From a virus, in IMG/VR virus record IMGVR_UViG_3300045988_072490: a stretch of 36,675 nt of DNA, one strand, 5' to 3'. The notes below the pieces were generated by a model, which saw only the letters and a list, made by a program, of their open reading frames with translations, did no database searches and had not been told where the DNA came from. Positions 11,762 to 28,286 of this stretch are shown one piece after another. Position numbers and translations under genes: made by a program. The stretch's first letter is position 1. The number at the start of each line of letters is the position of its first letter.

Positions 11762-11771
11762 TCATTATCCA

Positions 11772-11789
11772 GGGCGGGGCAACCCGCCT
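11772..11789 (+). terminator. Small GC hairpin after ORF 11510..11761
   Basis: GGGCGGG, loop GCAA, CCCGCCT, followed by ATAAAAATT. Confidence 0.5.
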
Positions 11790-11823
11790 ATAAAAATTAA
11801 TAGTCCTTTAAAATTAAAGAATC

Positions 11824-12126: not shown

Positions 12127-12133
12127 TATATAA
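12035..12133 (+). CDS. Candidate small membrane peptide (32 aa, MKKKILTFLTYLFWALAFVAFILIFCEPTTNI)
   Basis: Hand-translated ORF below the ORF-track cutoff. MKKK plus a ~20-residue hydrophobic helix; the stop lies 3 nt before the next ATG (12137). Confidence 0.35.
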   Translation: MKKKILTFLTYLFWALAFVAFILIFCEPTTNI

Positions 12134-12136
12134 ATT

Positions 12137-12373
12137 ATGTTTGAAATTTTAAAGGTAACCGCTATATTCGAAAGCGGTAGGGCAGTCAAGTACCGGGGGG
12201 AGGAAATAACCGCCCTTATGGGAACCCCCGAAGTATCCCACATAGGTACAGCCCGGAAAATTATATGGGCCCGTATAAAAGACCTCCAAGAAGAACCCCG
12301 TAACGAGGCTCTAGGAGCCGTAAAGAGGGTTATACTAGTGTACAGGGAGAAAGAACAAAGTATTAACCGATAA
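12137..12373 (+). CDS. Hypothetical protein (78 aa)
   Basis: + strand ORF in the compact early island; the antisense ORF 12019..12429 looks like junk. Confidence 0.55.
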   Translation: MFEILKVTAIFESGRAVKYRGEEITALMGTPEVSHIGTARKIIWARIKDLQEEPRNEALGAVKRVILVYREKEQSINR

Positions 12374-12383
12374 TAGACAAGTA

Positions 12384-12662
12384 ATGAGTAACAGAAAGAA
12401 ACTAAGAGGACCCAGAGACGGCGCCACACGTATCACCCCGGACAAGTCAATGAAGGGCACATTTTGCGGCCTGTACAAATTGGAAACCTACGATAAGAAG
12501 TCGGACAATTGGAACACCCTAGAGGGATGCAGTAATTTAACGTGGGGGCAGGCAGTCATAGCCCGTACCAATTATACCGCGTTACGGAGGGAATGCAAGA
12601 TAGCTAACAATACCGTTATACGGATAGTAAGACCGGGAATCGATGAAGGCAACGGAAACTAG
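12384..12662 (+). CDS. Hypothetical protein (92 aa)
   Basis: + strand ORF whose end overlaps the VRR-NUC start by 20 nt. Confidence 0.55.
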   Translation: MSNRKKLRGPRDGATRITPDKSMKGTFCGLYKLETYDKKSDNWNTLEGCSNLTWGQAVIARTNYTALRRECKIANNTVIRIVRPGIDEGNGN

Positions 12663-12957
12663 CGAAAAAGCGTTTGAACGTACTTTATCTAAGTACGTCA
12701 ACGACAAAGGAGGGATAGCGGTAAAGTTGCTATCCCAATTTGTTAACGGGCTGCCCGACCGCCTGTACTTGATACCAGGAGGGAATGCGCTCTTTGTCGA
12801 GTTCAAGAGCATCGGAAAGAAACCAACCAAGATACAGGAGCATATTATAAACCGGATACGAAAGGTAGGATTTTCCGTTATGGTGGTGGATAGCCCGGAA
12901 GCATACAAAAATGCTGTTTTGTACATTGATATGTTACTAGGCGTTAATATCGAATGA
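12643..12957 (+). CDS. VRR-NUC domain nuclease (104 aa)
   Basis: GLPDRLYL...LFVEFKS...KPTKIQ fits the PD...ExK...Q pattern of VRR-NUC. This is its expected place in the DUF2800/PolA/VirE/SNF2 module. Confidence 0.8.
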   Translation: MKATETSEKAFERTLSKYVNDKGGIAVKLLSQFVNGLPDRLYLIPGGNALFVEFKSIGKKPTKIQEHIINRIRKVGFSVMVVDSPEAYKNAVLYIDMLLGVNIE

Positions 12958-12991
12958 ACTGATATAACGAATGTTAATGTTTTGACAAAAA

Positions 12992-13023
12992 GTTTTGTAG
13001 TTCAAAAGGTATCCGTATCTTTG
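12992..13023 (+). promoter_or_regulatory. Promoter P3 (TTTG 12994-12997, TATCTTTG 13016-13023)
   Basis: Same 32-nt cassette as P1 and P2, followed by TGTCAAAAGG. Confidence 0.7.
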
Positions 13024-13061
13024 AAGTGTCAAAAGGAAATAACCACTTAAAATTAGAAGAT

Positions 13062-13241
13062 ATGAAAAAGTTAGAAAAATCAATTTTGAAAGCAATCGGT
13101 AGCGGACTAAAGAAGACAAGAGACATAATACCCTATGTAGGTTGCGAATGCGAGTACAAAAACTTCTGCGAGGCTATCGCGAAACTATTGATAGAAGGGA
13201 AAATAGTTTACGGCGCAGACGGATATACATTAAGCAAATAA
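13062..13241 (+). CDS. Small winged-helix-like DNA-binding protein candidate (59 aa from ATG 13062)
   Basis: MKKLEKSILKAIGSGLKKTRDIIPYV...FCEAIAKLLIEGKIVYGADGYTL has a wHTH-like layout. The start was chosen by aligning the leader to P2; the track start 13026 (GTG) lies 3 nt after the -7 box. Confidence 0.55.
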   Translation: MKKLEKSILKAIGSGLKKTRDIIPYVGCECEYKNFCEAIAKLLIEGKIVYGADGYTLSK

Positions 13242-13251
13242 ATAATAACCC

Positions 13252-13269
13252 GGGCGGGTAACACCGCCC
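13252..13269 (+). terminator. GC hairpin after ORF 13062..13241
   Basis: GGGCGG (13252-13257), loop GTAACA, CCGCCC (13264-13269). No strong T tract follows. Confidence 0.4.
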
Positions 13270-13285
13270 ACAACACCCAAAAGAT

Positions 13286-13711
13286 ATGAAAAAGTTAATT
13301 AGTATTTTAGTAGTAGTTTTGTTTGCAGTTAGTGCAATGGCGCAAGTATCTAGCCAGTCCGGGAAATTGGAGGTTATGAAGTCGTTCCGCCTAGGCACGT
13401 GTAAGTTAGTGAAGGTAGAGAAGGAAGGCGCGGTAGCGTATCAGATAACCGCCCTGATAGCGAATGCCACGTCACACGAGTTAGATATACCATTGGGGGA
13501 TAAAGACGCCGCTACGGCCCTATTAACGTCCCTAGCGGAATATAAACCGACCAAGGGTGAAGTAGTCAATCTTAATAACGTGGACGGAAATACGGCTACC
13601 TATTCAAAGTTTAACGGCACGTGGCAGATATACGGACGCGGTCGCACTCTGTACATAGTAGTGAGCAGAAAGGAATTGTCAACAATGGCTAAAGTAATAG
13701 GAGGCAAATAA
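13286..13711 (+). CDS. Secreted or periplasmic protein with N-terminal signal peptide (141 aa)
   Basis: MKKLISILVVVLFAVSAMA/QVSS is a classic signal peptide with an AxA cleavage site. Confidence 0.65.
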   Translation: MKKLISILVVVLFAVSAMAQVSSQSGKLEVMKSFRLGTCKLVKVEKEGAVAYQITALIANATSHELDIPLGDKDAATALLTSLAEYKPTKGEVVNLNNVDGNTATYSKFNGTWQIYGRGRTLYIVVSRKELSTMAKVIGGK

Positions 13712-13712
13712 T

Positions 13713-14174
13713 ATGGAGACCACAGAAAGAAACTATAACGAGCTATACGGTAACGGAAATGAGTATCTAAAGGTTTTCGTACATGCGGGACTGCATAACA
13801 TATATGAAGCGACCAACGTAAAGACAATGGAACGGAAACGATTCAACTCCCTTAAGGACCTGGAAACATATCTATACAATAAAGAGTATCACCTTATTAT
13901 GACAGACCGTGCTACGATATTCGCCCGTAACATCATGGAGGGTGTCTCGCCGTTATCCCTTATGGACCTGACCACCAGGCGCGACGGGACACTGAAAGAG
14001 ATTTGTTTCCAACGCGGAGACAGAACGTACACCGGGTGGATAATAGGCAAAAACCTATGTGATAAGCGGGAAGTGGTTGTCAGATGCAATTGCCCCGGCG
14101 CCTATACGAACGCTACCGGACATAAGACCGTAACGGTACCCGTCGAGAATATTATATTATTGTCGGATTATTAA
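13713..14174 (+). CDS. Hypothetical protein (153 aa)
   Basis: ORF starts 2 nt after the previous stop; no recognisable motif. Confidence 0.6.
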   Translation: METTERNYNELYGNGNEYLKVFVHAGLHNIYEATNVKTMERKRFNSLKDLETYLYNKEYHLIMTDRATIFARNIMEGVSPLSLMDLTTRRDGTLKEICFQRGDRTYTGWIIGKNLCDKREVVVRCNCPGAYTNATGHKTVTVPVENIILLSDY

Positions 14175-14186
14175 TTTACTAGAGAC

Positions 14187-14618
14187 ATGGAAGAATTTAA
14201 TAAGAAACTTAAAGTAGACCGCGTGAATCAGTTCGGGCACCTGGTTAAGGCTATGGCGCACGGGACGCCAACCGAGGGATACGCAATCGGGGACGCTATT
14301 AAGGCCCTTCCGGATAACCTGCAACAATACTTGTTGTCCGAGGTACCCGACCGGATACTACGCAAAGAGCATACACGCAGGGGCCTCAACGACCTAACGA
14401 CGACCCCGTACGAAGGTATCGACGAATTGAGGGAAACGTACACGGATGTAGTATTCAAGGCCAACCCGGCTAGAGAGTTGTGCAACCTGTTAGACATCAG
14501 GTCAGCCTTTCCCGATATACTGGATGTAATAGACGAAGTACTGAAATTATTTCCGGAACGGTTCACACGGAAGGACCTTGCGAACGAGTTGTATATGGAC
14601 GAGATAGGAATGAGATAA
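14187..14618 (+). CDS. Hypothetical protein (143 aa)
   Basis: + strand ORF in the early island; no recognisable motif. Confidence 0.6.
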   Translation: MEEFNKKLKVDRVNQFGHLVKAMAHGTPTEGYAIGDAIKALPDNLQQYLLSEVPDRILRKEHTRRGLNDLTTTPYEGIDELRETYTDVVFKANPARELCNLLDIRSAFPDILDVIDEVLKLFPERFTRKDLANELYMDEIGMR

Positions 14619-14640
14619 TATCAATTAAAAATTTAATGGC

Positions 14641-14868
14641 ATGAGTAATAGAGCTAATAGTTATATGTGTGTAGGCACCACGTTTGAGAAGGACGGTACA
14701 ACCTACGTAGTAAGAGAGGCGAACGATAACCTCTGTAAGGGGTGTGCATTTTACAGTATCAACGAAGAAGGCGCGCCCGAATGCAAGGGGCTTGACTTCC
14801 TGTGTGACGAAGGCTGCCGAGAAGACGAGAAGAACGTAGTGTTCCAAACAATCAACAAGGGGGAATAA
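14641..14868 (+). CDS. Small Cys-rich protein (75 aa, 6 Cys), possible zinc-binding protein
   Basis: C10, C32-x2-C35, C48, C55-x3-C59. Its stop overlaps the SNF2 helicase ATG (TAATG). Confidence 0.55.
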   Translation: MSNRANSYMCVGTTFEKDGTTYVVREANDNLCKGCAFYSINEEGAPECKGLDFLCDEGCREDEKNVVFQTINKGE

Positions 14869-16256
14869 TGCTAGACCGTACACAGTTACACAAGTATCAG
14901 ATAACGGCCGTCAACCATATCGAGAACAACCCGTGCGCCGCGCTGTTTCTTGACATGGGATTAGGGAAAACCGTGTCCACGTTAACGGCCGTGTCTGACT
15001 TGATAGAACGATTTGAAGTAACTAAGGTATTGGTAGTAGCCCCCAAGAGAGTAGCGGAAATGACGTGGATAGACGAGGTTAACGCATGGAGCCATTTACG
15101 CCACCTACGCGTATCAGTCATTAAGGGCACCGCCAAACAAAGAGAAGCGGCAGCTAGGGCGGATGCGGATGTGTACACGGTTAGCCGGGATAATCTCGTA
15201 TGGCTCTTGCAAATGTGGGGCGGGCAAAAGGCTCCCTATGATATGTTAGTGTTGGACGAGTTAAGCAGTTTCAAGAATCACAGCGCCAAACGGTTCAAGG
15301 CGGCAAAAGTTATCCGCCGTAGTTGTTACCGTGTCGTAGGTCTTACCGGAACGCCCGCGCCAAATGGACTTATTGACCTGTGGGCGCAAATGTACCTTGT
15401 TGACGGCGGGCAAAGGCTAGGTAAGACGATAACCGATTACCGCGCCAACTACTTCCGACCGGGACGGCAGAACGCCGGGATAATCTACGAGTACAAACCG
15501 CTGGCCGATACCGAGGAGGTGATAGGGGGAAAGATATCCGACATCACGCTGTCAATGAAAGCACTTGATTTCCTGGATATGCCGGAAGTGACGTACATCA
15601 ACAATTATGTCGAGCTATCCGAGAAAGTGAAGAAGGCATACGACAAGTTCGAGGAGGAGCAACTTCTAACACTGCTTGACGCCGCCGGAGGGGATTCCAA
15701 AGAAATCACAGCGCTAAACGCCGCGGCCCTTACAAACAAGTTACTGCAATATGCAGGGGGTGCGGTCTACGATGAAGTACGGGACGTGTACAACGTGCAC
15801 GACGAAAAGATAGAGACCCTTGTAGAAATGGTTGAGGCGGCGAACGGAGCGCCCGTACTTGTGGCCTATGGTTTTAAGCACGAGGAAGCCCGGATAATGA
15901 AGGCTTTACAGCCGTTCGGTGCGCGGAGGCTTAACACCGTGGATGATGTAAGGGAGTGGAACGAGGGAAAGATACCCGTACTAGTAACGCACCCGGCGAG
16001 CGCGGGCCACGGGCTTAACATGCAGAAGGGCGGCAACCGTATAATATGGTACAGCGCTACATGGAGCCTGGAATTATATCAGCAGTTCAACGCGCGGTTG
16101 TGGAGGCAGGGCCAAAAGAACAGTGTATTCGTACACCACTTGATAAGCAAAGGAACCGTAGACGAGCGGGTAATAAGTGTGCTAAATGGAAAGGCCACCG
16201 CGCAGGACGGATTAATGAACATAGTTAAGGAACTAATTAAAAAATATAAATTATGA
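14868..16256 (+). CDS. SNF2-family helicase (462 aa)
   Basis: Motif I LDMGLGKT, motif II LVLDELSSF, motif III LTGTPAPNGLIDLW, motif VI QQFNARLWRQGQ. Confidence 0.9.
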   Translation: MLDRTQLHKYQITAVNHIENNPCAALFLDMGLGKTVSTLTAVSDLIERFEVTKVLVVAPKRVAEMTWIDEVNAWSHLRHLRVSVIKGTAKQREAAARADADVYTVSRDNLVWLLQMWGGQKAPYDMLVLDELSSFKNHSAKRFKAAKVIRRSCYRVVGLTGTPAPNGLIDLWAQMYLVDGGQRLGKTITDYRANYFRPGRQNAGIIYEYKPLADTEEVIGGKISDITLSMKALDFLDMPEVTYINNYVELSEKVKKAYDKFEEEQLLTLLDAAGGDSKEITALNAAALTNKLLQYAGGAVYDEVRDVYNVHDEKIETLVEMVEAANGAPVLVAYGFKHEEARIMKALQPFGARRLNTVDDVREWNEGKIPVLVTHPASAGHGLNMQKGGNRIIWYSATWSLELYQQFNARLWRQGQKNSVFVHHLISKGTVDERVISVLNGKATAQDGLMNIVKELIKKYKL

Positions 16257-17482
16257 ATGTATTGAGTTTATTCGACGGGATGAGTTGCGGACAAATCGCA
16301 CTTACCGAACTAGGGTGCTTCCCGGAAAAGTACTACGCTTCCGAGGTGGACAAGTTCGCCATACAGCAGACTATGCACGTGTTTCCGGGGACTATCCAAC
16401 TAGGGGACGTTACCAAGGTGGGCGTATCGCAATTGGATAGAATCGATTTGCTGATAGGGGGAAGCCCGTGCCAATCATTTTCATTTGCAGGAAAACAGGT
16501 GGGTATGGTTACAACTGATAAGGTGGATATAACCGACTTGCAGACCTACCTAGACCTCAAGGAAATGGGATTTGAATTTGAGGGGCAATCGTATCTCTTT
16601 TGGGAGTATATGCGCATATTGACAGACATACGGAAGTATAACCCGGACGTTAAGTTCCTGTTAGAAAATGTAGTTATGTCGAAGAAATGGGAAGCGGTAT
16701 TAACGGCAGCTATCGGAGTGGAACCAGTCAGGATTAATAGTAACCTAGTATCCGCGCAGAACCGGAAGCGCCTGTACTGGACTAACATAGCTGAGATACC
16801 CCAACCGAAAGACGAAGGAATATACATACGTGATATACTAGAGGACGAAGTAGATGAAAAGTACTATCTATCCGACAAGACCATACAGGGCATGATTAAC
16901 CACACCGAGAAAAGTACGGAGAAGGGAAACGGTTTCGGTGCGCGCGTTGTGTCACCGGACGGAAAGGCGAACACGCTATTGCAACGGTGCTACAAGGACG
17001 GTAAAGATAATCTTATAGTAGCTAGCCGAGGAAGAACGGACCCGGACGGTATTACTAGGCAGAACCTAGAACCGAGAACGGACGGAAAATCTAACTGTAT
17101 AACAATGGTGCAAAAAGATAACCTGTTGTTGGAGTGGTTGCGGGAGTGGTTGCGGGATTTATCGCCCCGCGTAAAGGGGGTAACAGTCACTACGGAGGGA
17201 ATAAGGACCCACAGGGGAGACGCTAAGAAATCCGGGGTAAGCGTATTGGGGACTATCCGTTTCTCCGATTCGAAAAATGACACCCTGTTAACAGGCTCGA
17301 AAAATTTGGTACTAAGAGAGGACTGTCGTGTAAGACGGTTAACGCCTAGAGAGTGCGCACGGTTGCAGACCGTACCGGAGTGGTACGAGTGGGTGGTATC
17401 TGACACACAGATATACCGGATGTGCGGTAACGGGTGGACGGTAAAGGTAATAGAGCATATATTAGGGAATTTATTCATTTAA
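16253..17482 (+). CDS. DNA (cytosine-5) methyltransferase (409 aa)
   Basis: Motifs LSLFDGMSCG (I), GGSPCQSFS (IV), ENV (VI), QNRKRLYW (VIII), RRLTPRECARLQTVP (IX) and GNGWTV (X). Confidence 0.9.
   Translation: MNVLSLFDGMSCGQIALTELGCFPEKYYASEVDKFAIQQTMHVFPGTIQLGDVTKVGVSQLDRIDLLIGGSPCQSFSFAGKQVGMVTTDKVDITDLQTYLDLKEMGFEFEGQSYLFWEYMRILTDIRKYNPDVKFLLENVVMSKKWEAVLTAAIGVEPVRINSNLVSAQNRKRLYWTNIAEIPQPKDEGIYIRDILEDEVDEKYYLSDKTIQGMINHTEKSTEKGNGFGARVVSPDGKANTLLQRCYKDGKDNLIVASRGRTDPDGITRQNLEPRTDGKSNCITMVQKDNLLLEWLREWLRDLSPRVKGVTVTTEGIRTHRGDAKKSGVSVLGTIRFSDSKNDTLLTGSKNLVLREDCRVRRLTPRECARLQTVPEWYEWVVSDTQIYRMCGNGWTVKVIEHILGNLFI
17132..17155 (+). repeat. 12-bp in-frame tandem duplication GAGTGGTTGCGG x2 (EWLR EWLR) inside the methyltransferase variable region
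   Basis: Read directly at 17132-17143 and 17144-17155. Confidence 0.9.
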
Positions 17483-17495
17483 TTAAATGTAAAGT

Positions 17496-17969
17496 ATGAA
17501 AACAACAAATTACAAGAAAGGTGATGTAGTATTACTGAATGACGGATACCGTTACGAGTATTTAGGAGAGATACTGCTAGCAGATGACCACGCGTCGCAT
17601 ACGTATAGGCCGCTAGACGGAAAGACGGATTATGGGCTGGTAAAGGGCGCCGCGGGCGGGATAGCACCATTCGGCTATAAGGTATCCGCCGAGGTGGTAA
17701 GCGCGAAAGGGCGCAACAAGTTATTACGGTGGTTCCTTGAGTCCAACCGTTGGAAACACTTCCTTTATGCTATCCCGGCGGGCGCGATAAACTTTTGGTT
17801 TGCTATCGGGCTAGCTCTAGGTATGGAGTTCAAAGATGCGCAGCACGGCGGTACTTTCGATTGGGTGGACGCCACGTGCACAGCAGTGGGCGGTTTCGTA
17901 GGGGCCGCGCTATCCTGGTGGCTATTGGGCAATTACGTATTACATTACCTAGTCAAACTAATCTTTTAA
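17496..17969 (+). CDS. Membrane protein (157 aa): soluble N-terminal domain plus two C-terminal TM helices
   Basis: HFLYAIPAGAINFWFAIGLALGM and TAVGGFVGAALSWWLLGNYVL. Confidence 0.6.
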   Translation: MKTTNYKKGDVVLLNDGYRYEYLGEILLADDHASHTYRPLDGKTDYGLVKGAAGGIAPFGYKVSAEVVSAKGRNKLLRWFLESNRWKHFLYAIPAGAINFWFAIGLALGMEFKDAQHGGTFDWVDATCTAVGGFVGAALSWWLLGNYVLHYLVKLIF

Positions 17970-17980
17970 ATCATAAAGTT

Positions 17981-18295
17981 ATGGCAGACATGGAGCATTT
18001 ATTCAGAGAGCAGGAAATGAGGGAACAGGCCGAGGCAACCGGACGTCCCACAGCGAACGAGATTTTCAAGACCGCATTGTACCGCGCGGAAAAGGCGCAA
18101 TATAATATGCGTATGAAGATAGGGAAGGCGGAAGCCGAGGAAGTGGTAATATACGCGGAGAGCGTGCCGAGGAACCTAAAGAGGGCTACGGACTTTACGT
18201 TTTACCGGAAAAACAATCCGCAAGTACAACTGACATTGACGCGCACGGAGATGTATGCGTTACTGGGAAAGATACGGGAGGCGTTGAGGCTATGA
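17981..18295 (+). CDS. Hypothetical helical protein (104 aa from ATG 17981)
   Basis: The track ORF 17750..18295 overlaps the previous gene by 220 nt. The internal ATG at 17981 (MADMEHLF...) begins 12 nt after that gene's stop. Confidence 0.55.
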   Translation: MADMEHLFREQEMREQAEATGRPTANEIFKTALYRAEKAQYNMRMKIGKAEAEEVVIYAESVPRNLKRATDFTFYRKNNPQVQLTLTRTEMYALLGKIREALRL

Positions 18296-18435
18296 TTAAG
18301 AGATTTTGCAAGTGGATGAGTAGCCCGGAAGATTTGCCCGGGCTAGTAGTGAGAATGTTAACAGCGATTTTAATAATAGTGGTTTGGGCGTTCCTGTTGG
18401 CGCTGATAGCCGCATTAACAATGTGTAGATTATAA
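18292..18435 (+). CDS. Small single-pass membrane protein (47 aa, MIKRFCKWMSSPEDLPGLVVRMLTAILIIVVWAFLLALIAALTMCRL)
   Basis: Hand-translated. ATGA overlap at the 5' end and TAATG overlap at the 3' end link it to both neighbours. Confidence 0.5.
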   Translation: MIKRFCKWMSSPEDLPGLVVRMLTAILIIVVWAFLLALIAALTMCRL

Positions 18436-19007
18436 TGGGACAGAAACAAATGGATTGCAGAAAGAAACCGCTAGAGTTCGTAATACAGGACCTAGCCACG
18501 ATACTAAATGTAAATGAGTTCTTCCTATTCAAGTTCTGCAAGGAGAACGGGATATATTACCGGAAGGTTAAAAATTTCCCCTATCACCTAGTGAAGGCTA
18601 TGGATATTTGTGAGGCGATTCCAAAGATAAGAGGGGGGATAGCTACGGTACGGGACGATAGGAACACGAGAACGGAACCAAACCGGATACCAACTATTGA
18701 GACCCTATTTATCAAGGACAACAAAAAGACCAGGCTAGACAAGTTCAATACGGAGGATGTCCCTAGGATATGGTGCCCGGGAACGGGGACGGTTAATTAC
18801 CGAGGCAGGGTAGAATCAAATGTAATATACCGCCTTAACTATTATAAGGACGGCACCGTATCACTAGACATGTGGAAATGGTCGTTCCATAAGTGGGAAA
18901 CGGTGGAACCGTGCAGGGCGCTAAGGAATCGTAAGGAAATTTTACGCGAATGGGCATGCAAACATAGCTTTATAGCGAGGGATAAAGACGGTAAAGTAGT
19001 CGAATAG
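18435..19007 (+). CDS. Hypothetical protein (190 aa), last gene of the early arm; possible N-terminal HTH
   Basis: ORF in a coupled chain. The N-terminus LEFVIQDLATILNVNEFFLFKFCKENGI is weakly HTH-like. Confidence 0.55.
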   Translation: MGQKQMDCRKKPLEFVIQDLATILNVNEFFLFKFCKENGIYYRKVKNFPYHLVKAMDICEAIPKIRGGIATVRDDRNTRTEPNRIPTIETLFIKDNKKTRLDKFNTEDVPRIWCPGTGTVNYRGRVESNVIYRLNYYKDGTVSLDMWKWSFHKWETVEPCRALRNRKEILREWACKHSFIARDKDGKVVE

Positions 19008-19262
19008 CTGAAAAAACTTTCTTCTCAAATTTCTATGTTATTACAATTTTAGTGACGACACAAAGATTTTGAGAGGAAAGTTTTTTCTCATTTTATTAAC
19101 ATTTTAGGTTAATTGATACTAAATCGTTGTAAACAATATTTTTTGAGAGACAATTTGAAAATAACGTTTTTCGGGCAAAAAGAGTGTTTTAAAGGATATT
19201 GAGAGAAAAGTTTTTTGAGAGAAAATATACAATCAGCCGTTTTACGCATTTCTTCTCAAAAA
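19008..19262. repeat. Non-coding array of TTGAGAG/TTCTCAA and AAAGTTTTTTC motifs, including three copies of the composite 19-mer TTGAGARRAAAGTTTTTTC
   Basis: Composite copies: reverse at 19010-19028, forward at 19069-19087 and 19199-19217. Extra TTGAGAG at 19143-19149 and 19215-19221; extra TTCTCAA at 19253-19259. Confidence 0.8.
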
Positions 19263-19289
19263 AGTGTACTAAAAGGTTTTACAATTCTG

Positions 19290-19655
19290 TTTTATCTGTG
19301 ACACTTACCAATGACGCGTAAAGCGCTGATTATCAAGCTACAAACTTTTTGCCGTCACAGGTAAAGATTTTTCATCAGTGACACGTAACTGACTGATATT
19401 TATATAGTTATATATAGTGTAATAGATGTAATAGATGATTTGTATAGAGATAAAAATGAATGATTTTAGATTAGTGATTTGATATATATTAACTTATATT
19501 AATTAATATAAAATCAAAGGTGTTATTTTTTTATTTTTATCTTCCAGGGAAAATGCTATTACATCTGTGACACTGGCTGTAACTCGCTGTGCCACTGCAC
19601 TTTACGTGTCATTCTTCATCTGTGACACACCTATGGCATCTATTACACCCCTGCG
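19290..19655. promoter_or_regulatory. Structured non-coding element, copy B (paralog of 3231-3570)
   Basis: Motif copies at 19294-19304, 19374-19384, 19563-19573, 19618-19628 and 19638-19648 (variant); degenerate inverted copy at 19353-19362. Runs identical to copy A: 19416-19436, 19608-19628 and 19367-19384. Confidence 0.8.
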
Positions 19656-19728
19656 TTTCGGGACGTTAAGTTGCTGTAAAACAGATAGTTACGGTACGTA
19701 AACCACAATTATAGGCATTTAGCGTGTA

Positions 19729-19754
19729 TTTGAGGTGGGAATGTAGTATATTTG
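19729..19754 (+). promoter_or_regulatory. Candidate late promoter P4 (TATATTTG at 19747-19754)
   Basis: The TAnnTTTG box is followed by the shared TGTCAATAA motif, 28 nt upstream of the terS ATG. The nearest TTTG (19729-19732) is only 14 nt upstream, so the -33 element is uncertain. Confidence 0.5.
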
Positions 19755-19782
19755 CTGTCAATAATTAAGAATCAATTTTCGT

Positions 19783-20484
19783 ATGAATAAAACAGATAAG
19801 AACAAGGATGCGGGGAAGCCCGTGCCGGAGGTGGCAATAGGGAAAGACGGGGTGCCGGTGAACGTTGGTACGCAAGCCCGCCTCGAAAAATCCCCCACGC
19901 GCCTAAATCCGGCCGACGAAACCGGGTGCGATAGCGTTTTTCAGATATGCCGCCGCCGTTGGGGGCTGACCCCGCTTTGGCAGGAACCGGACGACCTTCT
20001 AGAAGCGTTCAGTCGGTACCGCGAGTGGATAGATGCGCACCCTATAATAGTACACGACGTAGTTAAGTCGGGTAACATGGCGGGTACCATACTAGACATT
20101 CCGAGAAAGCGACTTATGTCTGAATCGGACTTCTGCGCGTTCCTTGGCGCGGCACCTAACTATTTGGCGGACCGTAGACGGATATATGAAGCCAATTACG
20201 AAGAGTTCGGTCTAGAGGCATCCAAGGGATTCGCCGAAGCTATCGACAATATCCGTATGATGATATTTCAGGATATGGACGCGGGCGCGGCGTCGCAGGC
20301 GTTCGACCCTACGTACATCCGCTCTTTACGCGGGCTGAAAACAGCGCTTGACTACACATCCGGTGGCAAGGAGATTAAAGGAGGCCTCACAATACAGGTT
20401 TCAGACCCTAGGACGGCATCTAGAGTCCAAAAGCTAAAGGACTTCAAGAAAGAGCACAAAACGTCAGAAAACGAAGGAAAATAG
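19783..20484 (+). CDS. terS: Terminase small subunit (233 aa)
   Basis: Lies immediately upstream of terL. LEAFSRYREWIDAHP...RKRLMSESDFCAFLGAAPNYLADRR fits the Terminase_2-type pattern (from memory). Confidence 0.7.
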   Translation: MNKTDKNKDAGKPVPEVAIGKDGVPVNVGTQARLEKSPTRLNPADETGCDSVFQICRRRWGLTPLWQEPDDLLEAFSRYREWIDAHPIIVHDVVKSGNMAGTILDIPRKRLMSESDFCAFLGAAPNYLADRRRIYEANYEEFGLEASKGFAEAIDNIRMMIFQDMDAGAASQAFDPTYIRSLRGLKTALDYTSGGKEIKGGLTIQVSDPRTASRVQKLKDFKKEHKTSENEGK

Positions 20485-20490
20485 CCTTAT

Positions 20491-21660
20491 ATGAAATGTA
20501 CATATGTATTCGATAAAATGATAGGCCCGGTAACCGACCCGTACATAAGAGGGATAGCGAGTAAAGGCGGTACGCGTTCTTCTAAGACTTGGAGCGTGTT
20601 ACAGTTACTTTACCTAATCGCCCGGGAAAGTACCGAGCCGCTAATGATTAGTTGCGTAACGGACACATTGCCCGCAGTCCGTCGCGGTATGTTGCGCGAC
20701 TTCACAAATATGCTGATAGACGAAGGAGTATGGGAGGACAGCGCGTTCAACAAGTCCGAGATGATATACACCGTAAAGGAAGGTGTATATATTGAATTCT
20801 TCGGGTGCGACAGTGCCGCCAAGGTACACGGCCCGGCGCGCGACATTCTTTTCATCAACGAGGCGCAAAGGGTGCCGAGGGAAATATTCCGGCAACTGGA
20901 CGTGCGTACCCGGCTAAAGGTGATAATCGACTTTAACCCCGTCCGTAGATTTTGGGGCGAGACTGATTTTGTAGGGGACAAGTACGTAACTATCCACAGC
21001 ACGTACAAAGACAACCCGTTCCTGACCGAACAACAAGTACAGGCAATCGAGAAGAACGCCAACGACCCAAATTGGTGGCGCGTATACGGTGAAGGACAGA
21101 CAGGCGGGCTGGAAGGCCTCATATATCCAGAAATTGACATTATTGAGGAGTTGCCCAAGGAATTACAGGGCGAGGACACAAAACGCTGTGTAGGGATTGA
21201 TTTCGGCTTTCAGCAAGACCCGACCGCAATAGTCGATATCTACATGCGTGGTTGGGATCTGTACATAGATGAAATTTGCTACCGTACCGGAATGCTGAAC
21301 CGCACAATAGCCGAGACGCTAAAGGAAGCCGGGCTGCATAACGTCTACACCGTATGCGACAATGCCGAGCAGAAGAGTATCGTGGAGATACGGCAGCACG
21401 GATGCAAAACTATCCCCTGTGTGAAGGGCAAAGGCTCCGTAAAGGCAGGCATTCAGCAGGTGAAGCAATTCCGGATACACGTAACGAAAAGGAGCGATAA
21501 CGTACTGGACGAGGCGGATAACTATTCATACGTCAAGGACAACATGACGGACCTGTACACCAACGAGCCGATAGATGCATATAACCATGCATGGGACGCT
21601 ATCCGTTACGGCGTCGATTTCCTTATCCGAAAGTACCGACCTAAGGCGGCCGCACAATGA
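20491..21660 (+). CDS. terL: Terminase large subunit (389 aa, PBSX/Terminase_3-like)
   Basis: Walker A-like GGTRSSKT, Walker B ILFINEA, nuclease-domain GIDFGFQQDPTA and C-terminal HAWDAIRY. Confidence 0.85.
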   Translation: MKCTYVFDKMIGPVTDPYIRGIASKGGTRSSKTWSVLQLLYLIARESTEPLMISCVTDTLPAVRRGMLRDFTNMLIDEGVWEDSAFNKSEMIYTVKEGVYIEFFGCDSAAKVHGPARDILFINEAQRVPREIFRQLDVRTRLKVIIDFNPVRRFWGETDFVGDKYVTIHSTYKDNPFLTEQQVQAIEKNANDPNWWRVYGEGQTGGLEGLIYPEIDIIEELPKELQGEDTKRCVGIDFGFQQDPTAIVDIYMRGWDLYIDEICYRTGMLNRTIAETLKEAGLHNVYTVCDNAEQKSIVEIRQHGCKTIPCVKGKGSVKAGIQQVKQFRIHVTKRSDNVLDEADNYSYVKDNMTDLYTNEPIDAYNHAWDAIRYGVDFLIRKYRPKAAAQ

Positions 21661-22503: not shown

Positions 22504-24843
22504 ATGATTAAAAAGTATGAGATAATCACAGTAGAAGGCAAGAAGCGCATAAAGGCACTTCGGTCTTTCAGCGTACAGGGCCGTTACGTTAACGTGGGCG
22601 ATGTAGGCGGTATAGTCTATGACGAGAACACATTGTCACAGGAGGGCAACGCGTGGATATTCAGTGGGAACCTTGGCTATCCGTCTATCCGTGTGGGCGG
22701 CGATAGTATTGTAGACACAAATGGCTACGAGGGCGCAGTAACCGACCCGAGACCATTCGTTAACATTACGGGGACTTCCGCACTTATCGGGGCGCATGAC
22801 TTTGTGACGGGCGCACTAGTATCTAGAGAACTCGCAGTAGCGGACGTTGAACAGGGCCATATTAATAATGCGCTGGGCGCCACCTACGAAGAGGGTAAAA
22901 CTAGCAACGCGAATATTATTCGGCTTAAATCTTTGATTTATTCGGGAAAAATCGCAGGTAACATAACGGCATCAGGAAAAGAGTATGAGGTACAGGTGTT
23001 ACGCTACGATGCTAATAAACGCCTTGTTAGCTTTTCTTCGTGGGGGGCTACCGCGGCAATTTCCGGAGCGGACTATATCGGAATTCTAATCCGCAAAACA
23101 CCGTACGCCGCAACGGTTCCGGCGGATATCACGGCCGCTAAAGTGGCGTTACCCGCGCTTTCCATTGAGGCCTACCTGGACATCAACGACAGCCGCCTAG
23201 AGTTTCAGTACACTAGCGCGATGACCGTTGCAACTAAGGTTAATCCGGGGAACGCAACTTCCGGCGTGCCTAAATCGGTCATTGACACAAGTAACGTTAT
23301 TATCAGTAAGACGGGCGGCGGCGGATTCGTGGCTATCATATTTGCGGACGTGGTTAAGTGCGGTGTGGAATGGCGGTTGATTTCGGCGAGGGGTTCCCTG
23401 GTAGGTAACTTTACGAACGTGGAAAGATTAGTGTTAGACGGGTCTACTTTTCTCGCATCAACTACCGCTGTAAAATCTCGTATAATTGCAAAAGATTGCG
23501 GAATATTTTCTATGTCCGCAACCGTGATTCCGGTTAACACAATTAATGATGCGATAGCAGCGAGGATGCCACTTACATTCATCCGTTGTAACGTTGAACA
23601 CGGATTGTTCTACCACAACCCGGTTAACCGCAATGTGTACACGGATATCGACTTTGATAAGGCCCTTACTGATTTGTCCGAACCGTTGGCAAACGATGAC
23701 CTTATTTTAGCTAGCGGGGAAAAGCAGGGAATGTATCGCGTAGTTTCCAAGAGTACGCGCGCTATGGGGCCATTGGTAGAGGACATTCACAGCGTGAAGA
23801 ACCTTAACCTAACCGCCGTAGGGGCTAATACGCAGTCCGTGGAGATTTACAAGGATGCATATTTGGAAGGCGCGTTCACCCTAGAAGGCCCGCAGGTGTA
23901 CGGGGGCTCTTTTGGGCACGACAGAAGCACCGACTTAAAGCCACACATGGTAGCCGCTAGGGGGGCATTCAATACGCAGGAGGTAGGAGAGGTTATCACC
24001 GGAACGGTGGCGAACGAGAACACGATGATTATCGCCACACCTGTACGTGTTAACGGCCTTCACGGCATGGAGATTGACGGCCTCACGGGTTCGGGCGTAA
24101 CCGCTACATTGGCATTTACCGATATACGCGGAAAGATTGCGGCAGTAGACGCACATTCTAACGATGTGTCGAAACTTACGGAAGATGACGTTAAGTTCCA
24201 CCAAGCCTATATCACATTCTCCAAGGTGGGAAGCCCCGTAACAGAGGACGACCTTAAAGGCATAGTTATCCGCACATTCAACGGTTGTAAGGTAGTCAAT
24301 ACGAAAGAGGCCGCCATAGTCGTTAAAGGAAACATAAGGGTAGAGGATAACGCCGCGGTGTACGATTCTTCAATAAGCGGTTCCGGGTATTTCGGAGGGA
24401 ACTCCGTTACCGAGAATGCAAACGTAAACGGTAGCATGCTAATCAAGGACAACGCGGTATTTGCGCCCGTGGCGGAGGAAAATAAATCCGACAGTTATAT
24501 ATACCTAGAGGACCGTGCGAGATTTCTAGCGACGTCCAGGGCGGACGCAAACACCGTAATAATGAAAGAGGGCGCGGTTTTTTCGGGCCGTAAAGTTAGC
24601 TCTACGGTAGCTTTAATTATGAGAGATAACGCGCGATGTGAGGGCGGTATATCGGGAAGCGGTGTATTAACGATGAATGGTGATTCCCACGTATCGGCGG
24701 GTTCCCTATCGGCGAACGGGGACATAACCGTTACAGGGAGATACAAACAGACAGCCGCGCGGGTTTTCTATGGAAAACGCGTTATATCGGATGAATCGGA
24801 GCCTACATACGACAATAACGTAAAGACGCAATATGACTTTTAA
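22504..24843 (+). CDS. Beta-helix repeat protein, tail fibre/spike-like (779 aa)
   Basis: Long runs of short G/N/V/S-rich repeats (e.g. NIRVEDNAAVYDSSISGSGYFGGNSVTENANVNGSMLIKDNAVF...) typical of parallel beta-helix tail proteins. Confidence 0.55.
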   Translation: MIKKYEIITVEGKKRIKALRSFSVQGRYVNVGDVGGIVYDENTLSQEGNAWIFSGNLGYPSIRVGGDSIVDTNGYEGAVTDPRPFVNITGTSALIGAHDFVTGALVSRELAVADVEQGHINNALGATYEEGKTSNANIIRLKSLIYSGKIAGNITASGKEYEVQVLRYDANKRLVSFSSWGATAAISGADYIGILIRKTPYAATVPADITAAKVALPALSIEAYLDINDSRLEFQYTSAMTVATKVNPGNATSGVPKSVIDTSNVIISKTGGGGFVAIIFADVVKCGVEWRLISARGSLVGNFTNVERLVLDGSTFLASTTAVKSRIIAKDCGIFSMSATVIPVNTINDAIAARMPLTFIRCNVEHGLFYHNPVNRNVYTDIDFDKALTDLSEPLANDDLILASGEKQGMYRVVSKSTRAMGPLVEDIHSVKNLNLTAVGANTQSVEIYKDAYLEGAFTLEGPQVYGGSFGHDRSTDLKPHMVAARGAFNTQEVGEVITGTVANENTMIIATPVRVNGLHGMEIDGLTGSGVTATLAFTDIRGKIAAVDAHSNDVSKLTEDDVKFHQAYITFSKVGSPVTEDDLKGIVIRTFNGCKVVNTKEAAIVVKGNIRVEDNAAVYDSSISGSGYFGGNSVTENANVNGSMLIKDNAVFAPVAEENKSDSYIYLEDRARFLATSRADANTVIMKEGAVFSGRKVSSTVALIMRDNARCEGGISGSGVLTMNGDSHVSAGSLSANGDITVTGRYKQTAARVFYGKRVISDESEPTYDNNVKTQYDF

Positions 24844-25231: not shown

Positions 25232-25677
25232 TGGCAAAGAATCCGATAACACAGATTGAAGTGCTGCTAACCAAGCTACGCGACGATATCGAACAATCGT
25301 ACATACAGAAGGGCCTGATAGCTTCCGGTAACTTCGGACGCGAGCTGAAACTTACCGTAAGTGGCAACAACGCGAAGATAACCGCACCGCGCTATGTCGG
25401 CGCAATGGAGGGAGGACGTTCCCCCGGAAGGCGCCCGCCGTTATCAGTCATCAAGCGTTGGATAGAAGACAAGAACCGTAGAGGGGCGAACATACCGATA
25501 GAAGCCGCCTATCCTATCGCAAAGATGATAGGCGAGGAGGGAATAAAGGTTCCCAACGACCACAACCCCGGCGGCGTGGTGTCGGATGTGCTAAACCCGG
25601 CCAGGGTACTGTCATTGCAGAATGACATTATAACGATAATACGATATGCGATTATTGACACATTAAAAATTGAATAA
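25231..25677 (+). CDS. Small virion-assembly protein candidate (148 aa)
   Basis: TAATG coupling on both sides; function assigned by position only. Confidence 0.5.
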   Translation: MAKNPITQIEVLLTKLRDDIEQSYIQKGLIASGNFGRELKLTVSGNNAKITAPRYVGAMEGGRSPGRRPPLSVIKRWIEDKNRRGANIPIEAAYPIAKMIGEEGIKVPNDHNPGGVVSDVLNPARVLSLQNDIITIIRYAIIDTLKIE

Positions 25678-28286
25678 TGAAAGTATATTTACCCATAATC
25701 GACGAGACGCTAGTGAGTAGCGTGTCAATTGAAGAATCCAACTTCTATTTGCAACCTATCCCGGTATGGCCTACACGGTCGTACACGATTACCATTACAC
25801 CGGAAAGTCCCGCACAGGACGTGGGAATATCTATTCTGCAAGGCGGCGTTAACAAGTTCCTAAAGAATATCCCGTATTCACCGAAGATTGAGTTTGATTT
25901 GTCAATAGCGGGCACAATAATAAATCCGTTAACGCGTGACCGATCATTGGTAAATGGCGGAGGTAACGATTTAGGTCTAATCACTATATCGCACAATAGC
26001 AAATATTGTTTACTTATTTTGTTTAACGCGGATGTTCCCGTGCATATGATGCCCGCGATAGGCGGAACCAATTTCAAGTTCCCGGTAAAGCCGAGAATCC
26101 CCGGACAGCCATACGACATTATTATGCCGTCTTTGTCGTGGGAAGACAACGGGCTGACTAGCTACGACATCACATGTGAACCCGTGGACGATTACCACGG
26201 TGCGCACGTGTTCCCCACGAAGTATTTCCTAGGCAGTACGATAGATATCAGGTTCATCAAGAAATTAACCGTCAAAAGCCCGAAAACTGGCGATACGGTA
26301 GCCGTAGCCGAGTATGAAAATAAGTTGCCGCAAGCCGTAGCGAACGACGACCAAATGTTATGCGCCGCGCGCCTACGTTGGAATATGCGTAACGGGCAAT
26401 GGTTTTGGTATGCGTTTAAGGACTACTTTTGGAACGAGGGCTTCACTTATATGCGTGGTTTGGGCGGCGCGTCCGAGCAGGGCATTCTGACTATCAACGT
26501 AGCGTATGCAAAGGAATTTTATCCGGCATTCCAAGAGTTGTTAGTTTCGTCAAATATCGAATTGACGCTTCCGAAACAGTCCCCCACAATAGACGAGGAA
26601 CAACGATATAAAATGGAGGTTACCAGCGACACGGGCGCCCGGTGGAGCGGCTCGGAACGTGTGTACCGCCAACAGATTACATTGCGTACTATCGGCTTTA
26701 TGGATAACTATATACCGCCCGCTGAACCGGACGCGCCCGGCATTCTCCCGGCAGCGTTTACCGCTACTCCGTATGAGCAGTCGTACCCGTATGAGCAGTC
26801 GTACCCGTATGAGCAGTCGTACCCGTACTATGCCGATATAAATGCGTTAACCAACGTTACTAGTAATGTCAGGTGGGACATGGTTCCGCAGGCTGATTGG
26901 CTGATAATAGATGACCCGGCAAACGGAAAGGGCAGCATAGGACGTACACAGGTAGTAACTAGACGTAGGTTGAACCCTAGCACGGCACCCCGGACGGGAT
27001 ACTATCATTTCTTCAAGGAGGGAACGACCGAGCAGATAGGCGGAATAAAGATAAATCAGAACGGGGCGCCCGCAGTGAACGCCACGCCTAAGTTTTTGCC
27101 GATATCATCCGGGGGAGAATCAAAGTCCTTTACGGTGAGTTGCGCAACCGCCGGAGTGGGGAAATTAAAGGTTACTAATATGTCAGGCGCTAGTGGGGCA
27201 TGGGTTAATCTAGACGCTAGCCAATTGGAGCAAAACGGAGGAGATGTGTATGTGAACCCGGCGAATAATTTGCCGGAAACCGGAGGCGTTCCGCGCTCGT
27301 GCATTATCCGCACTACACACGACATCACCGGACAAATAGCGGATGTGAATGCCATGCAGTACGTAAATTGCCCTCTTGACAGATACCCGAACGATTTCAA
27401 ATGGGCGGGCAAAGGTATGTATGCATATGACGGAAATGCACATAATGATAATGAGTTTACCTTCACTTCCGGAATACCGTATACCGATATGGTCGCGGAA
27501 TGTAATTGTAGCTACGTAACTAATATTAGAATAGTACGTGCAGCACCTAACATTAAGCTAGTGTTTAATTTGGCGCAAAACGCGGGCCCCGGGGCAAACG
27601 CTGATAGATTTGCGCGTATCAACATCAAGCACGTACCCACCAGGAAAATATTGGGAACCTTAGTGATACTCCAACGCGCCTACAGCAATGCGCCTACTAA
27701 TTACGTGCATGCTAATTGGGACGCAGTAGAGGCAGGAGAAGGAAGTATGCATTCCTTTGAGTTGGTAACGGCTGCACCTATGGTGCCTAGCCTTAAACCG
27801 CCGTCGCTGGCTAAGGCCTACAATATTGACAGTCTCACCGTTAGCGGTGTGCAACTTAATAAGTTCCGCGTTATGCTAGATTGGAATCCCCGTCTGACCC
27901 GAACTGTCAATATACCGATGAGCGTTACGGGGGCTTCGGGGAACGCCCCTATTATACAGTATTCCAACGTTGACGCTATGGCAATATTATCTAATCAGAT
28001 TTGGGACCGCTTATCGCCCGTGTGGGTGTTGAGTGCAGCCAACGAACGAACCGCAGAAATAGCGGTACAGGCGCAAAAGCTAAAACAACGTGATGAGATA
28101 TCGTTCTTCCGGCTTGACAGTTGGGTAACACTAGAATCAACCAGGATAGACCCTAATAACGAATATATTAGAAAGTTCAATTTGCGGATAGCGGCCAATA
28201 CGACAGGCGCGGCACGGGGTACGGAAATTAGGTTCCAAAGACCGGGGATATCTGATATAATTATACGAATCGAACAAGCAGGGTAA
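25677..28286 (+). CDS. Large virion protein with several BACON-like (Ig-like) modules, candidate receptor-binding/tail protein (869 aa)
   Basis: Repeated module ends fit the BACON pattern W...W...N...R.a.I...Q (from memory): RTGYYHFF...IKINQNG, RSCIIRT...VNAMQY, RFARINIKH...LVILQRA and SWVTLES...AANTTGAARGTEIRF...IIRIEQAG. Confidence 0.6.
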   Translation: MKVYLPIIDETLVSSVSIEESNFYLQPIPVWPTRSYTITITPESPAQDVGISILQGGVNKFLKNIPYSPKIEFDLSIAGTIINPLTRDRSLVNGGGNDLGLITISHNSKYCLLILFNADVPVHMMPAIGGTNFKFPVKPRIPGQPYDIIMPSLSWEDNGLTSYDITCEPVDDYHGAHVFPTKYFLGSTIDIRFIKKLTVKSPKTGDTVAVAEYENKLPQAVANDDQMLCAARLRWNMRNGQWFWYAFKDYFWNEGFTYMRGLGGASEQGILTINVAYAKEFYPAFQELLVSSNIELTLPKQSPTIDEEQRYKMEVTSDTGARWSGSERVYRQQITLRTIGFMDNYIPPAEPDAPGILPAAFTATPYEQSYPYEQSYPYEQSYPYYADINALTNVTSNVRWDMVPQADWLIIDDPANGKGSIGRTQVVTRRRLNPSTAPRTGYYHFFKEGTTEQIGGIKINQNGAPAVNATPKFLPISSGGESKSFTVSCATAGVGKLKVTNMSGASGAWVNLDASQLEQNGGDVYVNPANNLPETGGVPRSCIIRTTHDITGQIADVNAMQYVNCPLDRYPNDFKWAGKGMYAYDGNAHNDNEFTFTSGIPYTDMVAECNCSYVTNIRIVRAAPNIKLVFNLAQNAGPGANADRFARINIKHVPTRKILGTLVILQRAYSNAPTNYVHANWDAVEAGEGSMHSFELVTAAPMVPSLKPPSLAKAYNIDSLTVSGVQLNKFRVMLDWNPRLTRTVNIPMSVTGASGNAPIIQYSNVDAMAILSNQIWDRLSPVWVLSAANERTAEIAVQAQKLKQRDEISFFRLDSWVTLESTRIDPNNEYIRKFNLRIAANTTGAARGTEIRFQRPGISDIIIRIEQAG
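26769..26828 (+). repeat. 18-bp in-frame tandem repeat CCGTATGAGCAGTCGTAC, 3 exact copies plus a partial (PYEQSY x3)
   Basis: Read directly at 26769-26786, 26787-26804 and 26805-26822, with a partial copy at 26823-26828. Confidence 0.95.

Follow-up and report, generated by a model that had tools for sequence, protein, structure and literature searches.

Why should a phage genome carry, directly upstream of its small terminase gene terS, a second copy of a repeat-bearing element that also stands ahead of its replication arm, 16 kb away? The question is raised by the IMG/VR virus record IMGVR_UViG_3300045988_072490, the whole of which (36,675 nucleotides) is called the window here, and by an earlier note on this DNA, in which the two elements, copy A and copy B, had been described and promoter control or, possibly for copy B, a pac/cos-like role in packaging had been proposed as function. 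As the note had held, the two copies bracket the early/replication arm (3865-19007), and the late arm starts at 19783 with terS, which is followed by TerL. Our analysis makes it fairly probable that copies A and B are two replication origins, each built of iterons and a DNA-unwinding element (DUE), which would be read by the primase-helicase of the phage in a way analogous to oriL and oriR of phage SPP1.

Architecture of copies A and B

Copy B lies in the gap 19008-19782, which contains no open reading frame (ORF) of at least 50 amino acids (aa) on either strand and, with its 775 bp, is indeed the largest in the genome, the next being 3212-3864. Three zones can be told apart in it: a B-specific upstream third (19008-19267), the repeat proper, and a B-specific spacer of ~70 bp together with the terS promoter. 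The element had been given the extent 19290-19770; the repeat itself was confirmed, but its left edge is at ~19268, and positions 19656-19770 are B-specific and lie outside it. The parts of copy B, the adjoining spacer and copy A are the following.

19268-19655, + strand: copy B as a whole, consisting of left iteron arm, AT-rich centre and right iteron arm, in the same orientation as A
19268-19285, + strand: left edge of B, ACTAAAA and then TTTACAAT (19278-19285), a degenerate outermost repeat
19294-19304 forward, 19354-19362 reverse (one mismatch, ACCTGTGAC on the - strand) and 19374-19384 forward: outer left sites of B
19417-19436, - strand: inner left pair of B, two exact 9-mers ATCTATTAC in tandem (19419-19427 and 19428-19436), pointing away from the right arm
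19437-19553, no strand: AT-rich centre of B, 82% A+T, candidate DUE
19554-19648, + strand: right arm of B, a degenerate TGCTATTAC (19554-19562) abutting a forward site (19563-19573), an imperfect inverted repeat, a forward site (19618-19628) and a variant forward site ATCTATTACAC (19638-19648)
19656-19728, + strand: B-specific spacer between the repeat and the late promoter, without counterpart in A, conserved within clades
3205-3570, + strand: copy A, with sites at 3233 (forward, one mismatch), 3246 (forward), ~3291-3293 (reverse), 3313 (forward), 3358 and 3367 (reverse), the AT centre at 3376-3468, a degenerate forward site at 3469 and forward sites at 3478, 3533 and 3553

All motifs that had been listed for copy B were present, at positions right to within 1 nt: ATCTGTGACAC at 19294, 19563 and 19618, ATCAGTGACAC at 19374, GTGTAATAGATGTAATAGAT at 19417-19436 (previously placed with its start at 19418), and AGGGAAAATGCT.TTACATCTGTGACA at 19546-19572, with its counterpart in A at 3461-3487. 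The two copies are collinear, with a mean column identity of 78% in a MAFFT alignment and a blastn E value of 8e-49, and copy B is therefore a genuine second copy of A in direct orientation, as the note had claimed. The homology fades past CACCCC, at ~19655 in B and ~3570 in A. Order and orientation of the outer left sites of B are those seen in A (3246 forward, ~3291-3293 reverse, 3313 forward), the inner left pair has its counterpart at 3358-3375, and the right-arm spacings of 55 and 20 are identical (19563/19618/19638 in B, 3478/3533/3553 in A). The right arm of A contains a 12-bp inverted repeat (3487-3498/3516-3527).

The repeat unit is 9-11 bp long and can be written as ATCT-R-T-K-AC-AC. 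Exact matches to ATCTRTKAC number 13 in the 36.7-kb genome, and all of them lie within the elements, seven in A and six in B. When the 11-mer was allowed up to two mismatches, 16 matches were obtained against 5.5 expected, and none of 100 shuffled sequences gave as many; a chance origin of the clustering is excluded. Degenerate sites included, we count 8-10 sites in copy B and 9-11 in copy A. Each copy has the same layout, running from outer sites in the order forward, forward, reverse, forward through an inner pair of 9-mers on the minus strand to the AT-rich centre (94-117 bp, 81-82% A+T), and from there through an inner pair on the plus strand to two further forward sites. The inner tandem 9-mers are thereby inverted across the centre, 19419/19428 (-) against 19554/19563 (+) in B and 3358/3367 (-) against 3469/3478 (+) in A. 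A nhmmer profile built from 18 copies matched the reverse strand of each element itself, with E values down to 2e-21, although more weakly than the forward strand in the case of B; the element is thus a dyad. The description of copy B as a set of iteron-like repeats around an AT-rich stretch was borne out.

The AT-rich centres are also exceptional on the scale of the genome, of which they represent the two minima in G+C content. Nearest-neighbour calculations of duplex stability placed the least stable 100-bp window of the genome at 19410-19509, within B (z 4.47; z 5.03 for a 150-bp window), and the second least stable one at 3361-3460, within A (z 4.12).

Conservation of the pair and change of its words

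The closest cultured relatives of this phage are eight phages of Bacteroides caccae, BC679P1-5 and BC669P1-3, and in all eight both copies occupy the same two junctions, late-to-early and early-to-terS. Both were also found at equivalent junctions in eight paired IMG/VR genomes of the clade to which the window belongs and in the genomes of clade 3, whose terS is 44-51% identical; from clade 4, copy A alone was recovered. About 30 IMG/VR contigs bear the copies at these junctions. The distant cultured phages BV741P4 and SJC17, with helicases of 42% and 55% identity, respectively, carry both copies at equivalent junctions as well. The two copies of BV741P4 are 82% identical to each other over 293 bp, and in both phages the two least stable windows are again situated in the two junction gaps. 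Absence of the second copy from related genomes had been named as a finding that would speak against the element; instead, the pair was encountered in every relative with both junctions, except for the Parabacteroides phage PM708P2, in which the situation is ambiguous. Searches by short words were of little use in this survey: a scan of the collection with CTACAAAMTTTTTGC returned mostly chance matches, and true homologues emerged after nhmmer screening, while a scan of cellular genome contigs with GTMATAGATGTMATAGAT gave at least 120 chance matches across all phyla, with none homologous among the matches listed.

The repeat word is lineage-specific, yet it is always identical in copies A and B of one genome and stands at homologous positions and in homologous orientations. 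The words are the following.

Window: ATCTGTGAC and ATCTATTAC
Clade 2: ATCTATGAC
Clade 3: ATCTTTTAC
Clade 4: ATCTATTAC (copy A)
SJC17: ATCTATC(C)A
BV741P4: CTGTTCCGAC

The inner left pair is replaced word for word, by two copies of ATCTATGAC in clade 2 and by ATCTTTTAC and ATCTTTAC in clade 3. Across the lineages the layout is kept, the AT centre having two or more sites to either side of it, in opposite orientation. Within the clade of the window, the repeats of copy B have 3 variable columns out of 72 and the spacers 86 out of 299 (Fisher p 2e-6); for copy A the values are 6 of 88 and 35 of 255 (p 0.09). Sequence and length of the AT centre of B drift between genomes, while its richness in A+T is retained. 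Over the 18 copies, the left half of the element shows a high conservation of primary sequence.

The relationship between the two copies was also followed through their identities. Within the window, A and B are 0.75 identical in the left half and 0.73 in the right half. These values are higher than those between each copy and its positional orthologue in clade 2, which are 0.66 (left) and 0.56 (right) for A and 0.69 and 0.49 for B, a pattern expected of copies that evolve in concert. In the IMG/VR contig 3300045988_038561 (L156/L143) a centre of the A type is substituted into copy B, and in clade 2 the identity between the centres of A and B varies from 0.23 to 0.93 depending on the genome. 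We take this as a sign of sporadic gene conversion across the 16 kb between the copies, with retention of the intervening arm.

The left edge bears on the origin of copy B. In copy A, the words ACTAAAA...TTTACAAT cover the TAA stop codon of ORF 2633-3211, the gene ahead of A. As read from the DNA, the same words in copy B are remnants of the 3' end, including the stop codon, of this gene, and they suggest that B arose from A by duplication. The B copies of clade 2 retain TTTCGACTAAAAATGTTTACAAT at their left edge, the same as in their A copies, and in clade 3 this position is taken by a full repeat, TCTTTTACAT.

Taken together, the conserved pair, the stability minima, the co-varying words, the constraint on the repeats and the concerted evolution make up the signature of a cis element whose reader is a sequence-specific protein, encoded by the phage and co-evolving with it, and, as judged by comparison of genomes, not that of a host-factor site, of neutral DNA or of an RNA.

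The primase-helicase as candidate reader

The early arm encodes a protein that could read the repeats.

8906-11287, + strand: fused primase, superfamily 3 (SF3, VapE-type) helicase and C-terminal winged helix, 793 aa; phrog_256/phrog_9765, PF05272 (VapE-like, E 5e-76)
10973-11284, + strand: C-terminal domain of the helicase, ~residues 690-793, predicted winged helix

Residues 377-714 of the protein matched PDB entry 7pds with an E value of 1e-76; 7pds is the complex of Rep1 of the staphylococcal pathogenicity island SaPI1 with DNA (PMC9371898). A family profile of the last 135 aa aligned to residues 324-464 of 7pds (E 2e-11). This range covers the C-terminal domain of Rep1, since the deletion construct used in that work comprises residues 1-346 (PMC9371898). 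The AlphaFold2 model of residues 610-793 has a winged-helix topology (strand-helix-helix-hairpin) at a predicted local distance difference test score (pLDDT) of ~90, and in a Foldseek search with the model of the tail the top six PDB matches were the six chains of 7pds (probability 1.00), further matches being weak and to other winged-helix DNA-binding domains. When the helicases of the window and of clade 2 are compared, identity is lowest in the tail, at 56% against 82-97% elsewhere. The helicase of clade 4, which is 67% identical overall, nevertheless has the helix motif ARELSNA together with the word ATCTATTAC, as in the window, whereas the closer helicase of clade 2 (85%) has GREIANA and ATCTATGAC. 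This is suggestive of a helicase tail that tracks the repeat word across lineages, and it makes the primase-helicase a candidate for the initiator that reads the repeats.

The Reps of SaPI are self-loading initiator-helicases whose C-terminal winged helix reads the iterons; their origins hold 6-12 iterons, of which two or more stand on each side of a central AT-rich region and in opposite directions, and two hexamers probably load, one on either side of the AT region (PMC9371898). The number of iterons stated there, the central AT-rich region and the two or more opposed sites per side are found in our elements. The SF3 helicase of the phage is homologous to Rep1 through the C-terminal winged helix, and in PriRep5 of SaPI5, which together with SaPI1 Rep1 and SaPIbov1 Rep represents this type, a primase is fused to the helicase as it is here. 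Unlike the SaPI origin, which is single and immediately downstream of rep, the element exists in two copies, neither of which is adjacent to the helicase gene; the intergenic stretch directly after that gene (11288-11509) contains the promoter at 11438 and no exact repeat. The carriers differ too, a lytic Bacteroidota phage in our case and a Gram-positive satellite in the case of SaPI.

A pair of distant regions is known from SPP1, in which oriL and oriR, ~13 kb apart, have the same organisation of repeats and DUE and are both bound by gp38 (PMC6316719). The second site has been proposed to stall forks and to bring about the switch from theta to sigma replication through an exonuclease, a single-strand annealing protein, a protein that binds single-stranded DNA (SSB) and a junction resolvase (PMC6316719, PMC3485210). 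Our elements resemble this pair in their distance (16 kb), in their repeats and AT-rich DUE, here with a presumed initiator, and in that one of the regions lies in a non-coding stretch bracketed by transcription signals; a comparable toolkit is encoded as well, namely an exonuclease, a gp2.5-like annealing SSB and an endonuclease/resolvase-like protein. In contrast, the initiator gp38, the loader gp39 and the DnaB-type helicase gp40 of SPP1 are unrelated to the Rep1-like primase-helicase, oriL is located inside gene 38 while both elements are intergenic, and there is no sequence homology. Searches of most early ORFs against PHROGs, Pfam and NCBIfam gave no match to an origin-binding protein, a helicase loader or a DnaB-type helicase, the sole primase-helicase being the VapE/SF3 protein. 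As no gp38/gp39/gp40-type set was found, SPP1 is to be taken as an analogue, and the phage is not a member of the SPP1 type.

The alpha protein of P4 binds the same octamer repeats in ori and in crr, ~4.5 kb apart, both of which are needed for replication. It unites a primase, an SF3 helicase and a C-terminal DNA-binding domain of the winged-helix type in one polypeptide (PMC2777425), and so does the primase-helicase studied here. The primase of alpha is of the DnaG type, however, the repeats, their spacing and the structures of the elements differ, and crr consists of two 120-bp direct repeats, not of a complete second ori. Iteron origins of theta plasmids and the lambda ori likewise have arrays of initiator sites beside an AT-rich region for unwinding, and their firing can be coupled to nearby transcription. 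Their repeats are mostly direct and located to one side of the DUE, and the initiator (RepA, pi, O) is a dedicated protein that recruits a DnaB-type helicase of the host, in contrast to the dyad layout described above and to its presumed reader, which is the helicase itself. Both dual origins in one phage and iteron/DUE origins with a self-loading SF3 initiator-helicase as their reader are known kinds. On one defining feature the phage falls outside the SaPI type, since it has two elements and neither adjoins rep, and it falls outside the SPP1 type because the initiator family differs. In the searchable literature we found no account of such elements in phages of Bacteroides, nor any publication on the BC679P/BC669P phages and SJC17.

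According to the reading that we favour, the winged-helix tail of the Rep1-like primase-helicase would bind the repeats, hexamers would assemble to both sides of the AT-rich centre, which they would melt, and the fused primase would start synthesis for the phage PolA, the gp2.5-like SSB and the exonuclease module. As for the second copy, it could be active as an origin too or, in line with the proposal for oriR of SPP1, be an initiator-bound site at which forks stall and concatemer synthesis is triggered. Through the promoters next to the elements (early after A, late/terS after B), firing may be coupled to transcription. These steps, from tail binding through hexamer loading and melting to priming, and the role of the second copy are ones that we infer. 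A possible, though on balance doubtful, extension is that the two copies divide the labour and are not redundant origins. One would fire theta replication, and B, which lies at the terS promoter and would be bound by the same C-terminal domain, would serve as a programmed fork barrier or recombination hotspot, thereby switching to concatemer synthesis and coupling replication to late transcription and to the start of packaging, on which the whole family would depend. The pairs of words and tails would, in addition, form a specificity code for self-loading SF3 helicases, with the series GTGAC/ATTAC, ATGAC, TTTAC, ATCTATCCA and CTGTTCCGAC as the words read by the winged helix.

Several observations weigh against the origin reading. 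There are two elements, one 5.3 kb upstream of the helicase gene and one 8 kb downstream of it, in contrast to the single SaPI origin adjacent to rep, and their words have 9-11 nt versus 5-6 nt for SaPI iterons. The link between helicase and repeats is one that we infer, and the correlation of tail and word rests on about six lineages, with C-terminal tails often evolving fast. No clear shared word was found in PM708P2 (L342), which with a helicase of 38% identity is the most distant phage examined, although AT-rich stability minima are present in its two equivalent gaps. GC skew showed no inflection at either element and rises monotonically, a test of little power because all genes are on one strand. 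Both elements are located directly upstream of promoters, and an operator or enhancer role fits these positions equally well. Finally, terS is unusually divergent between clades (48% identity against 79% for TerL), as would be expected if terS read a lineage-specific word.

If the origin reading is correct, a widespread family of lytic phages of gut Bacteroidales, with hosts in Bacteroides, Phocaeicola and possibly Parabacteroides, replicates from paired origins by means of a SaPI-Rep-like self-loading primase-helicase, a type of initiator so far characterised mainly in staphylococcal satellites. The main interest lies in the conservation of the pair over a broad family of gut phages, in a natural series of co-varying words and tails, and in the existence of cultured members. 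The BC679P/BC669P phages, SJC17 and BV741P4 offer a test system for asking why there are two origins and how the switch from theta to concatemer replication is set, and a comparative series for working out how a winged-helix tail chooses its repeat. Origins could moreover be annotated in genomes whose proteins are mostly still called hypothetical, the elements account for assembly breaks and mis-called ORFs in deposited relatives, and vectors for Bacteroides or engineered phages could make use of them as candidate parts.

Promoters, terminase and alternative roles

The alternatives draw on the promoters and on the terminase genes next to the elements.

3617-3646, + strand: early promoter, canonical Bacteroidetes type, TTTG, 18 nt and TATCTTTG; 55 bp downstream of copy A
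19729-19764, + strand: late (terS) promoter, TTTG (19729-19732), 14 nt, -7 box TATATTTG (19747-19754) and then TGTCAATAA (19756-19764)
19783-20484, + strand: terS, small terminase, first late gene; phrog_606 (E 5e-6), weak match to P22 gp3
20491-21660, + strand: TerL, Terminase_3 and Terminase_3C, directly after terS

Promoters of the phage are of the Bacteroidetes type (TTTG...TAnnTTTG), with canonical examples at 3617, 11438 and 12994; no canonical promoter was found inside the element. Copy B is closely followed by such a promoter for terS, as had been noted. Its spacing of 14 nt is non-canonical compared with the 17-23 nt of the promoters at 3617, 11438 and 12994 and is kept in clade 2, which suggests that the late promoter may depend on an activator. 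The downstream word TGTCAATAA is common to the terS promoter and the promoter at 11438, and close variants of it occur at 12994 and 3617.

It is on these promoters that a role of the repeats as operator or enhancer arrays would act, bound by a phage transcription factor that times the switch from early to late expression. Both copies end 55-100 bp upstream of a promoter, the unusual spacing of the late promoter fits activation, the second early gene encodes a suitable protein (62 aa, 4193-4381, HTH_17/excisionase-like), the only one with a DNA-binding domain in searches of most small early ORFs against Pfam, PHROGs and NCBIfam, and a lineage-specific word common to both copies is compatible with any phage-encoded binder. 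We regard this role as unlikely, given that the sites reach 100-480 bp upstream of the promoters, that the early-type promoters at 11438 and 12994 lack ATCTRTKAC repeats, that A and B show no homology to each other in the parts next to their promoters, and that the HTH_17 protein does not change along with the word, its identity being 85% in clade 2 and 70% in clade 4; a dyad around ~100 bp of the least stable duplex, with more than 80% A+T, is typical of origins. The position of copy B invites another thought, namely that the repeats are pac sites bound by terS, with headful packaging starting at B or at both copies. Immediately upstream of terS, B is placed where pac sites are usually located, TerL belongs to the Terminase_3 family and has as its nearest solved relatives SPP1 G2P and Sf6 gp2, both of headful packagers, and the greater divergence of terS than of TerL would fit a reader of the word. 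The assemblies BC679P5, L132, L133 and L134 break inside the AT-rich centre of B; the breaks fall at differing nucleotides (profile positions 129, 138, ~195-248 and 234), however, and they look like artefacts because their positions differ and because other breaks fall in tandem repeats. The note had argued that copy A, without a terminase neighbour, speaks against packaging as the shared function. This is reasonable, A being equal to B in architecture and conservation at 16 kb from terS, but it leaves room for a pac specific to the region of B, which may well lie in the B-specific spacer 19656-19728 or in terS, the repeats not being involved. With a dyad around an unwinding element being no known feature of pac, we consider it quite unlikely that the repeats serve packaging. 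Nothing that we found favours promoter control or pac/cos over an origin, for which the dyad of iterons and DUE and the Rep1-like helicase speak, and both roles are compatible with that of an origin rather than mutually exclusive with it.

Very unlikely, in our estimate, are explanations by DNA without any binding function, be it junction linkers at which early and late arms are exchanged or a neutral duplication homogenised by gene conversion. The copies do bracket the two arms, gene conversion between them was observed, and an exonuclease and an annealing-type SSB are encoded; against this, constraint is stronger on the repeat words than on the spacers, lineages differ in the word but keep positions and orientations of the sites, and the pair persists down to 42% helicase identity with entirely different words, which is unlike neutral or linker DNA. 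That the element is a structured non-coding RNA or a 3' untranslated region present twice is hard to credit at all. Its left half is highly conserved in primary sequence over the 18 copies, and both copies are located downstream of operons on the coding strand. RNAalifold, applied to both halves in 16-17 copies, gave only -2.4 and 0 kcal/mol, with compensatory changes in 3 of 19 predicted pairs, no Rfam match was obtained at gathering or E-value thresholds, and repeats in both orientations without an internal canonical promoter do not suit an RNA.

Between the early promoter and the first early ORF there is an untranslated leader of ~210 nt (3655-3864) without ORF, which is 90% identical to that of clade 2, where it is nearly invariant, and 72% identical in clade 4; clade 3 retains its 3' third only. 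As a structured RNA the leader gave a minimum free energy z-score of -0.04 and no Rfam match. In GenBank relatives, a "hypothetical protein" of 65-100 aa is annotated on the opposite strand, inside copy A or in the region of the early promoter (L001 1141-1443; L002 1084-1371; L007 and L008 1057-1359; L003 32507-32704; L004 20051-20269; L005 21082-21285). The frame is not conserved, the window holding only a 55-aa ORF with a GTG start (3543-3710), and the annotated genes are probably miscalls.

The upstream third of the gap before terS has features of its own.

19008-19267, no strand: outside the repeat, with a cluster of TTYTCTCAAAA in both orientations and the inverted repeats I14, I20 and I21

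The word TTYTCTCAAAA (complement TTTTGAGAGAA) has seven matches genome-wide at up to one mismatch, five of them, in both orientations, within 19008-19267. The remaining two, 11424-11434 and 12980-12990, lie just upstream of the -33 box of early-type promoters. The cluster could serve a regulator of early promoters as operators or decoys, or it could be a termination zone that ends the early arm. The equivalent stretch of clade 2 is longer and more repetitive. A scan of 18300-20000 for sigma-70 promoters and intrinsic terminators gave nothing above shuffled sequences and no terminator.

As to the phage genome as a whole, it is complete in the window, circularly permuted and ~36.6 kb long (positions 1-73 equal 36603-36675, a terminal repeat), and all of its genes are on the + strand. 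No tRNA or tmRNA genes were found in it. The modules of its early arm are the following.

3865-19007: PD-(D/E)XK exonuclease, gp2.5/Enc34-like SSB, PolA, primase-helicase, SNF2 helicase and C5-methyltransferase

In-frame tandem repeats occur in the ORF 4378-4980 (18 nt, eight times, coding for a KEPEPA-like linker, 4649-4846), in the ORF at the window ends (24 nt, three to four times, 1-97 and 36579-36675) and in the ORF at 26769-26827 (18 nt, three times). The repeats at 4649-4846 and at the window ends are the break points of the window, of most IMG/VR contigs and of five GenBank relatives, which points to assembly artefacts rather than genome ends. The ends of records and contigs were rejected as physical termini, as they lie in tandem repeats or at varying positions of the AT centre of B, and so was the 55-nt end overlap of BC679P5, which resembles an assembly artefact. 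The genes flanking both elements (2633-3211, 18435-19007 and terS) diverge above average. Among the late proteins, those encoded at 22504-24843, 25677-28286 and 35692-36240 have 36-57% identity to the B. caccae phages over partial coverage, compared with 81-95% for their neighbours, and are probably host-recognition or tail proteins.

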